A stretch of 64,000 bases of DNA from Promethearchaeota archaeon (GCA_048938105.1 JBHLMN010000008.1:128001-192000); one strand, 5' to 3'; shown: positions 23,825-42,199, counted from the stretch's first letter. Translations and numbers: made by a program. The notes: generated by a model not told the origin, from the sequence alone.

Positions 23825-24027
23825 AAGAAACCATTATCATGAGATGGAATGATCTTAGTATTTTTTTGAAGATTACGATGCCTCTTAATATTTTTTTTTG
23901 CCAACCTTTGAACTCATCTGATATAATTTTTCTTTAGAAAATCAAATTAGGGATGATATACTTAACGAAATTCTCAATAGAAAAATTAAAAGTTTAGTTC
24001 TATCAAGTAATTTTGAGGATTGGTTTC

Positions 24028-24258
24028 ATGAGTGGATCGACAAACAAAACTTCTTCCGAAGTTCCTCCCCATAGGCACTGCTATCAATGTGGTAAGGTTA
24101 TTTCTTTATCGAATGATTATTGTTCTCCAGAATGTGAAATAAAAGATCAAGAACGAATTAAGGATGTTGAATCAATAAAATTCAGTATGAGAATAATGGT
24201 CTTACTTGTAGCGGCTGCACTTGTTATAAATTTAATATTACCGTTGTTACTTCCTTGA
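24028..24258 (+). CDS. DUF2116-like Zn-ribbon protein with C-terminal TM helix
   Basis: PPHRHCYQCGKVI....YCSPEC, then a hydrophobic C-terminal helix. GAGGA precedes ATG 24028. Confidence 0.8.
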   Translation: MSGSTNKTSSEVPPHRHCYQCGKVISLSNDYCSPECEIKDQERIKDVESIKFSMRIMVLLVAAALVINLILPLLLP

Positions 24259-24274
24259 ATGAGGGTCATCATCA

Positions 24275-40150: not shown

Positions 40151-40168
40151 TGATGAGTTGATGATTTT

Positions 40169-42199
40169 ATGGCAGAAATTGATACGTCTCCTGAGAACAA
40201 TGAAACAATTGAAGAACAGGAAGGATCAGAAGAAGAATTACTTCCAACATTTAGGGAGGATCCCAAATGGAAGAGTGGTGCGAGTTGGAGGGTTGGATTA
40301 GCAATTATTTATGGGACTATTGTTCTTCAACCAGCTTCAATTTGGCTGAGTTGGACCGTAGGTTTACAACCTTGGCAACTTATAAGTAGTTTTGAGTATA
40401 GTGCAATCCTTCTGTTTGCAACTCTTGCAGCAAGATCGGGCAAAGACCTTAGTCGTCAGGAAGCATTTGTTCTATTTTCAAATGTAGGAACTACAATCGT
40501 TGAAGCTCTTGCCGCAAATTTAATCTTCTTTTACTATTTCACAAGAAAATCTCCTGCAGCTCTTCAATGGGGATTCAGTTTTGAAGGTGCAAATCCTGCT
40601 CCAGACTGGTTTGCTCCTATAGTTGATATCGGACGAACTTTTCTAGATATAGCTTGGATACCCTCCATATTATTATGGATCATTATCTTCGGGATTTTAG
40701 TAAAATTAGTTGATTTATCAGTTGGATTCTTAGCGTATCAACTCTTCGTTGTTGAGGAGCGACTTCCATTTCCTGGAGCTCAAGTATGGGCTAATGCTTG
40801 CATCACAATAACGGAAAAAGCCAAAATGCCTCGTAAAGGACGAGTTTTAGTCTTTTCATCAATGATCGGGATTGCGTTTTCTTTAATCTTTCATGCAACT
40901 TGGATTCTCACAGGATCACCGCTTTTAATAAATCCCTGGATGGATATGACTGGAGTCTTAGAATCAGTAGGAATGGAAGGTGCAAGTTTCGGCTTGTTAC
41001 TTGATCTAATTTTGTTCGCAGGAGGCTTCGTCATGCCGTTTAAAATGGCTTTTTCAATTTTTATTGGTGGTTTCATTGGATACTTTGTGACAGGAATCCT
41101 AATTAGGCAAAATTTTGCTAATTTAGGTTATCTTTATCCTTGGCGATCTGGTGGATATTTTGATGCTAGTAGGATTTTTGAGTTTTTATTATTACGAATT
41201 TGGTTATCACCTATCTTAGGATTGGCAATAGGTGCCGGGATGGTACCCATTATCAGAAATCGAAAGAAAATTATTGATGGATTAAAGAAATTACGAGATA
41301 TTAAGGATATTCGGGAGCGGACAGACATGATACCCCTTTGGTTAATAATTACGATGTTTTTAATGGGGACAGGTGGTTCAATTCTCATTACTCTGATTTT
41401 GGTTCCTGAATTACTTTATCTCATCTGGTTATTAATTCTCTTATCCGTAGTATGGACATTCTTTTATAATATTGTAAACGCAAGAATCATTGGGGAATCT
41501 TGGGTTGGCTTAAATATACCCTATCTGACTCAAGGAGCATATTATGCTGTGAATTATTCTGGATACAAAGCATTTTTCGCACCGCTATTAGTAGGAGGTG
41601 GTGGGGGTGCTGGACAAGGTGGGATTGCACCTGCAGGGTATGGTTGGGCGAGTGTCTTTAAAGCATGCAGGATGACTGAAACTGACATTAAATCATATCT
41701 AAAGATCTATTTCTTCACCTTTCCTTTAACAATGCTTGTTTCATTTCTGTGGGTTCAAGTTTTTTGGCAATTTTCCGATATTCCATCCCAATTATTCTCA
41801 TACACAGCTGATTATTGGCCAGTTTGGGCACGAACTACTTTAATTTGGCCTTACTTAGCTCTAAATCCTGCTCAACAGGAGTTTCAATTAATACACCTAG
41901 ACTGGTTAGGCTTAGCTTTTATTCTTGGATTCACATTGACCTGGGTGATATCTGTATTTGCACTTCCGTTTGAGATGGTAGGGCTTACTATTGGTCTCGC
42001 ACAACCTATTCTTTTCAGTAGTATTACATTCCTAGGAGCACTCTTTGGTAAACTGATGGAAAGGATTAAAGGAAAAGAATGGTGGGGTGAAAACAAGAAT
42101 GTCATAGCCGCAGGATTTGGATTGGGAGAGGGACTCACAATAGCAATATTTGCAGCTATTGCTCTAATTTTCAAGGCAATGTGGATCTGGCCTATTTAA
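40169..42199 (+). CDS. OPT (oligopeptide transporter)-like multipass membrane protein
   Basis: LSRQE, VEERLPFPGAQV, GASFG, AAGFGLGEG motifs; many TMs. Confidence 0.8.
   Translation: MAEIDTSPENNETIEEQEGSEEELLPTFREDPKWKSGASWRVGLAIIYGTIVLQPASIWLSWTVGLQPWQLISSFEYSAILLFATLAARSGKDLSRQEAFVLFSNVGTTIVEALAANLIFFYYFTRKSPAALQWGFSFEGANPAPDWFAPIVDIGRTFLDIAWIPSILLWIIIFGILVKLVDLSVGFLAYQLFVVEERLPFPGAQVWANACITITEKAKMPRKGRVLVFSSMIGIAFSLIFHATWILTGSPLLINPWMDMTGVLESVGMEGASFGLLLDLILFAGGFVMPFKMAFSIFIGGFIGYFVTGILIRQNFANLGYLYPWRSGGYFDASRIFEFLLLRIWLSPILGLAIGAGMVPIIRNRKKIIDGLKKLRDIKDIRERTDMIPLWLIITMFLMGTGGSILITLILVPELLYLIWLLILLSVVWTFFYNIVNARIIGESWVGLNIPYLTQGAYYAVNYSGYKAFFAPLLVGGGGGAGQGGIAPAGYGWASVFKACRMTETDIKSYLKIYFFTFPLTMLVSFLWVQVFWQFSDIPSQLFSYTADYWPVWARTTLIWPYLALNPAQQEFQLIHLDWLGLAFILGFTLTWVISVFALPFEMVGLTIGLAQPILFSSITFLGALFGKLMERIKGKEWWGENKNVIAAGFGLGEGLTIAIFAAIALIFKAMWIWPI

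Follow-up and report, generated by a model that had tools for sequence, protein, structure and literature searches.

Twelve open reading frames (ORFs) at positions 24013–42199 of a 64,000-nucleotide stretch of DNA from an uncultured Asgard archaeon of the Hodarchaeales (the whole stretch is hereafter called the window) were found to encode parts resembling type VII ATP-binding cassette (ABC) systems together with permeases related to the oligopeptide transporter (OPT) family. The genes, designated g01 to g12 (Table 1), specify two large FtsX-type permeases (g03 and g09; g09 and its relatives are termed giants), a minimal FtsX permease (g06), two ABC ATPases (g04 and g05), an OPT-fold permease (g12), a DUF6785 protein that is its putative distant relative (g11), and the smaller proteins g01, g02, g07, g08, and g10. 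Judged by their linkage, the 12 genes form one conserved system and not a chance cluster, and the evolutionary linkage of its modules holds between paralogs, between species, and between domains of life. We regard the system as real, conserved, and undescribed, with a mechanism that is plausible but unproven. There is, in our estimate, an even chance that the 12 genes constitute one ATP-assisted, OPT-based uptake system for oligosaccharides, and possibly for glycopeptides; its physical assembly, substrate, and direction are what we infer.

Conservation of the gene set in Hodarchaeales and beyond

The host genome (5.85 Mb, GC content approximately 36%) contained a second copy of the locus at C14:284778–308387, in which paralogs of 11 of the 12 genes were present with 24–69% identity and only the DUF2116 gene (g01) was absent. 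The PqqD-type protein (g02), g08, g07, and the minimal FtsX permease showed 33, 27, 56, and 45% identity with their C14 counterparts, respectively, and the two ATPases 67 and 69% (the latter for g04). The DUF6785 protein, a giant of 1377 amino acids (aa), the OPT permease, and g10 showed 24, 27, 30, and 30% identity, respectively, and a second, M28-FtsX giant of 1252 aa was also encoded there. The C14 copy represents an ancient divergence from the window set. An ortholog of the whole locus, with the same gene order, was found on a 76.6-kb contig (JBSWNS010000009.1; loci L039/L041) of another Hodarchaeales metagenome-assembled genome. The g01 ortholog was retained (L039), the g03 ortholog had 996 aa, upstream surface proteins of 1202 and 481 aa and two downstream glycoside hydrolase (GH) family 57 genes were present, and the g08 ortholog, 49% identical, was the one non-self match in a homolog search with g08.

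The C14-type order was kept in at least nine Hodarchaeales genomes. It began with PqqD, a g08-like gene on the opposite strand, the unit g07, minimal FtsX, ABC, ABC, and a protein of approximately 810 aa, and ended with DUF6785, giant, and OPT genes, a g10-like gene, and a surface protein of approximately 740 aa. The unit of minimal FtsX, ABC, and ABC genes after g07 was invariable in 15 of 60 related genomes. DUF6785 occurred in 12 of the 60 relatives, all of one genus, and all 14 of its genes lay 5–9 kb from a g07 match on the same contig. When contigs were scanned with the giant alignment using narrow patterns, 18 loci were recovered, mostly from Hodarchaeales. Shorter M28-FtsX giants of approximately 1,250 aa with the same C-terminal domain (CTD) were also seen (L033–L038; C14:285340–289098). 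In several Hodarchaeales contigs they were not near OPT-like or DUF6785 genes, and only in the host genome (C14) did one directly follow the PqqD gene.

A profile of the CTD matched 1,499 clusters at 50% identity with E-values up to 1e-3, and 1,248 with E-values up to 1e-10. Most CTD-bearing proteins had 1,430–1,630 aa, with the domain at the extreme C-terminus. A metagenome sample recruited with a 10-row alignment (L050–L129) comprised 80 loci with 64 distinct giants. An OPT-like gene was in the locus of 62 of the 64; where at least 1.5 kb of downstream sequence was available (54 giants), it immediately followed the giant in 46. DUF6785 was found in 14 of 15 loci with at least 6 kb on either side. 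ATPase, minimal FtsX, g10, PqqD, and g08 genes were detected near 7, 2, 6, 3, and 2 of the 64 distant giants, respectively, and these counts are lower bounds because the hidden Markov models of the small proteins were made from Hodarchaeales only. The core of giant, OPT-like, and DUF6785 genes was widespread, and the ATPase was usually missing in cis.

Several distant loci carried further parts of the system. A single operon of L048 (GCA_037439485.1, GC content 66%) consisted of ABC, minimal FtsX, giant, OPT, Peptidase_M55, DUF6785, and GH31 genes. L120 and L121 contained giant, OPT-like, g08-like, PqqD (Pfam E 2e-10), and ABC genes in one direction, with the g08-like genes (E 3e-30) between the OPT-like and PqqD genes. 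The giants of these two loci (L120, 112–7230; L121, 5129–12358) had approximately 2,400 aa, about 800 aa above the usual length. PqqD-like genes lay beside giant and OPT genes in L119–L121, one of which (L121) belongs to a diderm bacterium, judged by adjacent LpxB and LpxK. L125 contained minimal FtsX, ABC, one other gene, and giant. Homologs of the parts were thus co-localized across paralogs, species, archaea, and a bacterium, and the original prediction that the parts behave as one functional unit was borne out by this conserved linkage. A literature search yielded no paper on DUF6785, M28-FtsX fusions, or ABC/OPT pairing, and no description of the ectodomain-less FtsX subunit, the pseudo-peptidase ectodomain, the CTD, the accessory proteins, or the combination as a whole. 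The family is large (approximately 1,500 CTD clusters) and occurs in carbohydrate loci of lineages whose sugar uptake is largely guessed from annotation, among them the Asgard group closest to eukaryotes.

Motor proteins, giants, and OPT-fold permeases

The Walker A, signature, Walker B glutamate, and H-loop elements were intact in the sequences of g04 and g05, and the best NCBIfam matches of g05 were LolD, MacB, DarD, and YbbA. The g05 ATPase showed 64–65% identity with the ATPases beside giants in L048, L121, and L125 and 74% with the trans-encoded ATPase of the Thermoprotei genome G061, compared with 41–45% for the other LolD-type ATPases of the window. The g05-type ATPases thus form a clade dedicated to giants that tracks them across loci, and g04, which was 58% identical to g05, is its lineage-specific paralog. 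In g06, the loop between the first two transmembrane helices had only about 14 aa, and no MacB periplasmic core domain was assigned. Its full-length homologs lay directly upstream of giants in L043 and L048 (33% identity, end to end in L048). A 98-aa ORF upstream of the L043 minimal FtsX gene had no similarity to g07.

The G061 genome, which carries locus L027, encoded four giants with the family CTD and one pair of minimal FtsX and ATPase genes. This pair was on a separate contig in housekeeping surroundings, between Lhr helicase and PolD genes; a 318-aa gene that follows it was considered as g08 and rejected, as it encodes a Metallophos protein. The host genome had three CTD-bearing giants plus g03 for two motors. 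These gene counts suggest that, whereas Hodarchaeales encode the motor in cis, a single motor encoded at another site probably works for several cassettes in most other lineages. Most loci would then look ATPase-less because their motor is encoded in trans, and we rejected the notion of "ATPase-less" FtsX proteins, since ATPases of the dedicated clade are encoded either in cis or in trans. Two interrupted genes were seen: a giant at G061:C45:52567–53034 had an in-frame TAA in the matched frame, which may reflect a pseudogene or a sequencing error, and the g07 homolog at G019:C40:28285–28626 had one in-frame TGA.

The N-terminal part of g09 consisted of a first transmembrane helix (residues 3–27), an ectodomain of approximately 930 aa with a protease-associated (PA)/M28-like region, and three transmembrane helices (953–1031). 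It was followed by the FtsX unit (Pfam FtsX, E 1e-11), composed of an amphipathic helix and a transmembrane helix (1080–1098), a MacB periplasmic core domain (PF12704, E 6e-9), and three transmembrane helices (1380–1484), and by the conserved cytosolic CTD of 168 aa (1485–1652). A model of residues 930–1652 made from a 42-sequence alignment (predicted local distance difference test, pLDDT, 82.5) matched only type VII ABC permeases, namely MacB (5GKO, E 6e-13), LolC/E, YtrEF, HrtB, YbbP, and BceB, and the TMt values with the MacB periplasmic domains 3FTJ and 9QGY were 0.63–0.67.

Pfam placed Peptidase_M28 at residues 318–447 of g09 (36.4 bits, cut-off 21.3). The site was read in an alignment that included LapA of Legionella (5GNE) and the two intact M28 enzymes of locus G002:C31, which retained every metal-site and catalytic residue. 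The M28-like domain of g09 retained HxD and both Asp ligands; in the giants the catalytic/ligand Glu-Glu pair was replaced by His-Tyr/Asn and the last His by Asn, and the sequence SGH.Q was invariant. An active surface aminopeptidase was therefore rejected, because the catalytic residues are replaced. The remodelled site, with three of five metal ligands kept, may still bind a metal or a ligand.

The g03 permease had eight predicted transmembrane helices in the same 1+3+1+3 plan, two smaller ectodomains, and a cytosolic tail of approximately 160 aa. The motif IRKQxLxW was common to the tails of g03 and g09; beyond it BLAST detected no homology between the two tails, and the CTD profile search did not pick up g03. 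The original prediction had called g03 and g09 paralogous, which holds for the C-terminal FtsX unit (25% identity over 468 aa) but no further. Pfam recognized a single FtsX unit in g03, g09, and both C14 giants, and left the extra 1+3 helix block of the giants unrecognized. The host genome had 68 FtsX-domain matches in approximately 40 proteins, most of the others being paired within one protein. Most of these FtsX proteins had 800–1,300 aa with two FtsX domains each, a very large expansion.

A complex prediction for g06 and residues 930–1652 of g09 gave an interface score (interaction prediction score from aligned errors, ipSAE) of 0.35, compared with 0.00 for the best of three controls. In calibration, 58 solved complexes out of 80 and 2 mismatched pairs out of 110 attained the mark that it reached; among those that attained it, only 7 of the 80 solved complexes and both mismatches scored 0.60 or below. 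At least 58% of contacts were common to the three runs, and partner pLDDT was at least 67. The score may also stem from likeness to solved dimers of the LolC-LolE type. The composite complex originally predicted is thus supported in the linkage of its parts; to a physical complex, the sole interface run lends weak support.

For g12, an AlphaFold2 model (pLDDT 62, predicted template-modelling score 0.71) matched only barley HvYS1 (7WST/7WSR; E 9e-10, TM-scores 0.61/0.67) with 14% identity, and no other match had an E-value below 0.07. Profile comparison of g11 and g12 by hhalign gave a probability of 45% and an E-value of 2e-4, with a shared E-R-L-x-F-P motif, which suggests that g11 is a distant OPT relative; Pfam assigned DUF6785 to g11 and did not match the OPT family. 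No match among PDB sequences was found with profiles of g11 or g12. The expectation of two OPT-like proteins therefore held for g12 by Pfam and by fold, and for g11 only through the weak profile match to g12.

Proposed oligosaccharide uptake and alternative explanations

The proposed system would be composed of a motor module (the Zn-ribbon-like g07 together with g06, g05, and g04), a second module of the large FtsX permeases g03 and g09, which would expose big ectodomains, and a third of the OPT-fold permeases g11 and g12, accompanied by the cytosolic accessory proteins g02, g08, and g10 and the tail-anchored g01. Surface-anchored enzymes, including two GH57 proteins of amylopullulanase type, would cleave the polymer extracellularly. 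Mechanical work on the outside (capture, feeding, or gating) would fall to the ATP-driven type VII ABC part, as in MacB, LolCDE, and FtsEX. The products would cross the membrane through the OPT-fold proteins, and the cytosolic GH13 and GH133 enzymes would complete the breakdown.

The downstream flank encoded a GT-C/Glucodextran_C fusion, two GH57 proteins, an EEP phosphatase, GH133, two esterases, GH13, and an MFS_2 symporter; its GH57 and GH133 genes were the only ones in the host genome. Both GH57 proteins, the EEP phosphatase, and one CBM48 esterase were surface-anchored, with a signal peptide, a Ser/Thr-rich linker, a C-terminal transmembrane helix, and a basic tail, and the GH13, GH133, and second esterase were cytosolic. 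Because GH57 is anchored at the surface and GH13 and GH133 are cytosolic, the breakdown products must cross the membrane inward. Alpha-glucan genes had been predicted on both flanks; this was clear downstream, but the upstream side showed only a sub-threshold Glucodextran_C match (E 0.006) in the 509-aa surface protein.

Other copies of the cassette lay among other carbohydrate-active enzymes (CAZymes). Interspersed in the C14 locus were genes for GH4, GH130, an alcohol dehydrogenase, and a cytosolic protein that weakly matched (alpha/alpha)6-glycosidases. One distant cassette had GH29 genes within the operon together with an FGGY kinase, another had two GH57 and three Glucodextran_C proteins, and the operon of L048 included GH31. 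The families that recurred within 3.8 kb of distant giants (108 ORFs) included AP_endonuc_2, GFO_IDH_MocA, GH42, GH130, GH66, GHL10, GH10, CE15, and AXE1. The predicted link to glycan degradation therefore recurs, with differing CAZyme families, and one membrane cassette with changing CAZymes resembles, by analogy, the logic of polysaccharide utilization loci. The duplication within one genome is tied to different CAZyme sets, and PqqD, g08, and g10 recur across domains of life. The window is a "complete" version that unites motor, accessory proteins, and cargo enzymes, and offers a defined gene set for reconstitution.

A wider generalization, which we put forward tentatively and think rather unlikely to hold, is that of a new hybrid importer class in which an ABC mechanotransducer energizes or gates OPT-fold permeases. 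Interchangeable cassettes would work on a dedicated, often trans-encoded shared motor and would provide a major oligosaccharide route in Asgard/TACK archaea and several uncultured bacterial phyla. If true, the class would fill in these lineages the functional place that SusCD or MalEFGK has in others.

The system was compared with known ones. Like the type VII ABC systems MacAB-TolC, LolCDE, FtsEX, HrtBA, BceAB, YtrEF, and YbbAP-TesA, it has FtsX four-helix units, LolD/MacB-type ATPases, and, in g09, a MacB periplasmic core, with the ABC motor apparently teamed with a separate envelope partner. Unlike them, it has as its partner two OPT-fold permeases of the same membrane, and the locus has an ectodomain-less permease, two different ATPases, and four cytosolic accessory proteins. 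The large permeases differ in the extra 1+3 helix block, the remodelled PA/M28-like ectodomain of approximately 930 aa, and the cytosolic CTD; the context is catabolic, and motor and permease genes often lie apart. To our knowledge, no type VII ABC system has a partner with a secondary-transporter fold, and no OPT-family protein depends on an ATPase. The likeness to the OPT/Yellow-Stripe-like family (PF03169, TC 2.A.67; HvYS1, 7WST) lies in the Pfam match and full-length fold match of g12. Known members of that family work alone on the proton gradient with peptides or metal chelates, whereas g11 and g12 are locked to an FtsX giant, and to the ATPase where it is visible, in glycan loci. The energy-coupling factor (ECF) transporters of group II are an analogy only, with several membrane cassettes per genome and the motor encoded elsewhere (as the four giants and one motor pair of G061); there is no sequence or fold relation, and T and S components are absent here. 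The SusC/SusD loci of Bacteroidota and the archaeal and bacterial MalEFGK (CUT1) maltodextrin importers share the locus logic of surface-anchored glycanases and binding proteins, a dedicated membrane uptake device, and cytosolic finishing enzymes, a set that the host genome has in duplicate with different CAZymes. Neither the window locus nor the C14 locus, however, had a SusC/SusD, TonB-dependent, binding-protein, or MalF/G-type component, and the membrane parts are from different superfamilies. Ectodomains of the nicastrin/nicalin type share the PA and M28-like fold and the loss of the catalytic Glu-Glu pair, and the 1252-aa C14 giant had a weak Nicastrin match; g09 differs in its fusion to an FtsX permease and in an invariant His at the catalytic Glu position.

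Several points weigh against an ATP-assisted oligosaccharide importer. We know of no type VII ABC system that imports anything, and OPT transporters are proton-driven and need no ATPase. The MFS_2/GPH symporter beside the window GH13 could import maltodextrins alone, and an MFS_2 gene lay approximately 11 kb from the second GH13 gene elsewhere in the host genome. About 10 binding-protein-dependent ABC importers are encoded elsewhere in that genome (21 BPD_transp_1 and 4 SBP_bac_8 matches). No BPD_transp_1 permease or solute-binding protein was found in the window, and the genome's copies were never beside alpha-glucan enzymes; the original statement that the window has no MalEFGK is thus true, but it is a weak argument because of the adjoining symporter. 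URO-D, the commonest neighbour of distant giants (9 of the 108 ORFs), is not explained by the model, and several distant giant contexts had no CAZyme. Seven g07 motor units (in G002:C31, G004:C101, G006:C182, G013:C77, G018:C86, G022, and G043) had no DUF6785 match on the same contig, some of these contigs being short. One of them, at G002:C31:13501–53500 (L018/L019), placed the g07, minimal FtsX, ABC, ABC unit amid peptidase genes. There were six TldD/PmbA genes, two intact PA-M28 aminopeptidases, a 113-aa PqqD-like gene, a weak OPT-like protein of 739 aa, and a MacB_PCD and FtsX protein of 579 aa, and the locus looks like an unfused, peptide-flavoured variant of the system. Peptidases occurred at other loci (M55 in L048, M1 in L127, and M3 oligopeptidase F near C14), and peptides or glycopeptides are possible substrates. 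Nor does the model account for PqqD, g07, g08, g10, and g01.

An alternative that we consider unlikely but the strongest of those weighed is a control of the FtsEX kind, in which the ABC/giant part uses ATP to activate, position, or release surface hydrolases and binding proteins and the OPT-fold permeases import the products alone on the proton gradient, so that one regulon holds two machines. Such action is established for type VII systems (FtsEX with EnvC, PcsB, and CwlO; YbbAP with TesA). The non-catalytic peptidase-like ectodomain with its conserved altered site would suit protein binding, surface-anchored proteins are conserved beside both locus types, and only 7 of the 64 trio loci have an ATPase in cis. 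This explanation does not account well for the adjacency of giant and OPT genes in 46 of 54 cases, even without a nearby surface enzyme gene, or for the ATPase gene sharing an operon with an OPT-like gene in L048 and L121, and neither the conserved cytosolic CTD nor the cytosolic accessory proteins would be needed for purely outside-directed control.

It is also conceivable, though in our view quite unlikely, that the substrate is a peptide or glycopeptide and that the system is an elaborated oligopeptide importer whose peptidase-like ectodomain binds peptide moieties. The giants have lost the catalytic Glu pair and one metal-binding His of M28 by replacement, and glycoside hydrolases, sugar kinases, isomerases, and dehydrogenases, not peptidases, are encoded in the window and in most of the informative contexts; these facts count against it in spite of the OPT family and fold of g12 and the M28 descent of the ectodomain. 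The aminopeptidases and TldD/PmbA genes of G002:C31, the M55 gene within the L048 operon, and the M3 oligopeptidase F gene near C14 agree with a peptide substrate. PqqD is a peptide-binding fold, but it is cytosolic and off the uptake face.

Export or envelope assembly in the style of a MacB pump we judge improbable; the outward product would be, for example, a toxic compound, a lipid-linked glycan, a surface glycoprotein, or a peptide, including a ribosomally synthesized and post-translationally modified peptide (RiPP). Every characterized type VII ABC system known to us works outward, the GT-C glycosyltransferase/Glucodextran_C fusion abuts the locus, and the fold of g10 may resemble that of secretion chaperones, although this is no more than a lead. 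PqqD proteins with the RiPP recognition element (RRE), and TldD/PmbA, take part in RiPP maturation. The scores of g02 with all NCBIfam equivalog models were far under their cut-offs, and no radical-SAM, YcaO, lasso-cyclase, or PqqB/C/E gene was among the Pfam matches of the window, the C14 locus, or L121. No RiPP precursor peptide was present in the gene sets of the window or C14, although no search was aimed at short precursor ORFs. A locus for RiPP biosynthesis or export was rejected, since no modifying enzyme is present. Catabolic neighbours (GH families, FGGY kinase, and sugar dehydrogenases) and cytosolic GH genes that follow the cassette in an operon also oppose export, and the characterized OPT-family members known to us are importers.

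That an ordinary MacB-type exporter and two ordinary OPT importers are unrelated neighbours in a gene-dense island is close to refuted, for although FtsX genes are common in the genome and another FtsX/ATPase set lies 14 kb upstream, the linkage survives 24–30% identity, changes of species, the distance from archaea to a diderm bacterium, and shuffling of gene order, a dedicated ATPase clade tracks the giants, and all 14 DUF6785 genes of the genus lie beside the motor unit.

Gene content, accessory proteins, and flanking genes

The 12 ORFs fell into three transcription blocks. The first (g01-g02-g03) and the third (g08, then g09-g10-g11-g12) were on the plus strand and the second (g07-g06-g05-g04) on the minus strand, and gaps between genes within blocks measured 0–48 nucleotides (nt). 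All Pfam family calls for the locus genes were above the family cut-offs. The families originally named for this region were confirmed by the ORF coordinates and these calls; the number of genes, given as 11, is 12. The annotated start of g05 is a TTG that gives a 52-nt overlap with g06. The ATG at 29278 is probably the true start, in agreement with orthologs of 240–242 aa.

Table 1. Genes of the 12-gene locus and flanking features of the window
Feature	Position	Strand	Description
g01	24013..24258	+	DUF2116 tail-anchored Zn-ribbon protein, 81 aa; PF09889 E 1.4e-9; C-terminal transmembrane helix 61-79
g02	24275..24736	+	Cytosolic PqqD/RRE-like protein, 153 aa; PF05402 E 4e-7, 30.6 bits (cut-off 23.4)
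g03	24761..27736	+	FtsX-type permease, 991 aa; Pfam FtsX E 7e-14
g04	27785..28531	-	LolD/MacB-type ABC ATPase, 248 aa; ABC_tran E 5e-34
g05	28562..29347	-	LolD/MacB-type ABC ATPase (ABC_tran); 238 aa from the probable start
g06	29296..29904	-	Minimal FtsX permease, 202 aa, four transmembrane helices, no ectodomain; Pfam FtsX E 1e-20
g07	29946..30296	-	Cytosolic Cys-rich (CxC...CxxxxC) protein, 116 aa, heads the motor operon; no Pfam or NCBIfam family
g08	30451..31407	+	Cytosolic protein, 318 aa, unnamed widespread family; no Pfam family
g09	31634..36592	+	Giant FtsX-type permease, 1652 aa; Peptidase_M28, MacB_PCD, and FtsX
g10	36599..37327	+	Cytosolic protein, 242 aa; no Pfam family; stop abuts the g11 start
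g11	37328..40150	+	Permease of approximately 19 transmembrane helices, 940 aa; DUF6785 PF20581 E 1e-37, weak DUF6784
g12	40169..42199	+	OPT-fold permease, 676 aa; Pfam OPT 34.9 bits (cut-off 25.8)
Three surface-anchored proteins (1335, 1199, and 509 aa)	14413..23824	-	Divergent from g01; signal peptide and C-terminal transmembrane helix in each
Alpha-glucan utilization genes	42206..64000	mostly -, three genes +	Assigned by Pfam

No transmembrane helix was predicted in g07, g08, or g10. Structural look-alikes of g08 in the atlas came from Bathyarchaeota, Thermoproteota, Lentisphaerota, and Poribacteria, and that of g10 was DUF3156 (TM-scores 0.60/0.70), so that g10 possibly has a YbjN/CesT/DUF3156-like fold, which is a lead only. 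The peptide-binding or chaperone-like folds of the cytosolic proteins hint at regulation or at handling of cytosolic tails, and not at RiPP chemistry.

The 1335-aa and 509-aa surface proteins encoded upstream shared a domain (30% identity over 317 aa), and no Pfam family was assigned to the upstream surface proteins. They are likely to be cargo-side partners, although their membership of the system is uncertain. Analogous anchored proteins of approximately 740 and 500 aa were seen at C14-type loci.

Two GH57 proteins of approximately 1,350 aa, a phosphatase, and an esterase were encoded at 44770–61136, which points to putative cell-surface alpha-glucan processing that would include dephosphorylation and deacylation. 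The gene at 42206–44350 on the minus strand, separated by 6 nt from the oppositely oriented OPT gene, encoded a GT-C protein (PMT_2-like) with 10 transmembrane helices fused to Glucodextran_C; at the corresponding position of the JBSWNS010000009.1 locus, there was a 409-aa gene with no Pfam match. MtrH, B12-binding, and URO-D genes were seen near locus L044. A separate type VII ABC set was encoded at 5217–10084 on the minus strand of the window. Its 1041-aa permease had two FtsX domains, and its two ATPases had 342 and 233 aa, the larger of them being extended at the C-terminus by a Cys-rich, Zn-ribbon-like segment. Two different ATPases per permease seems to be common in the host genome.

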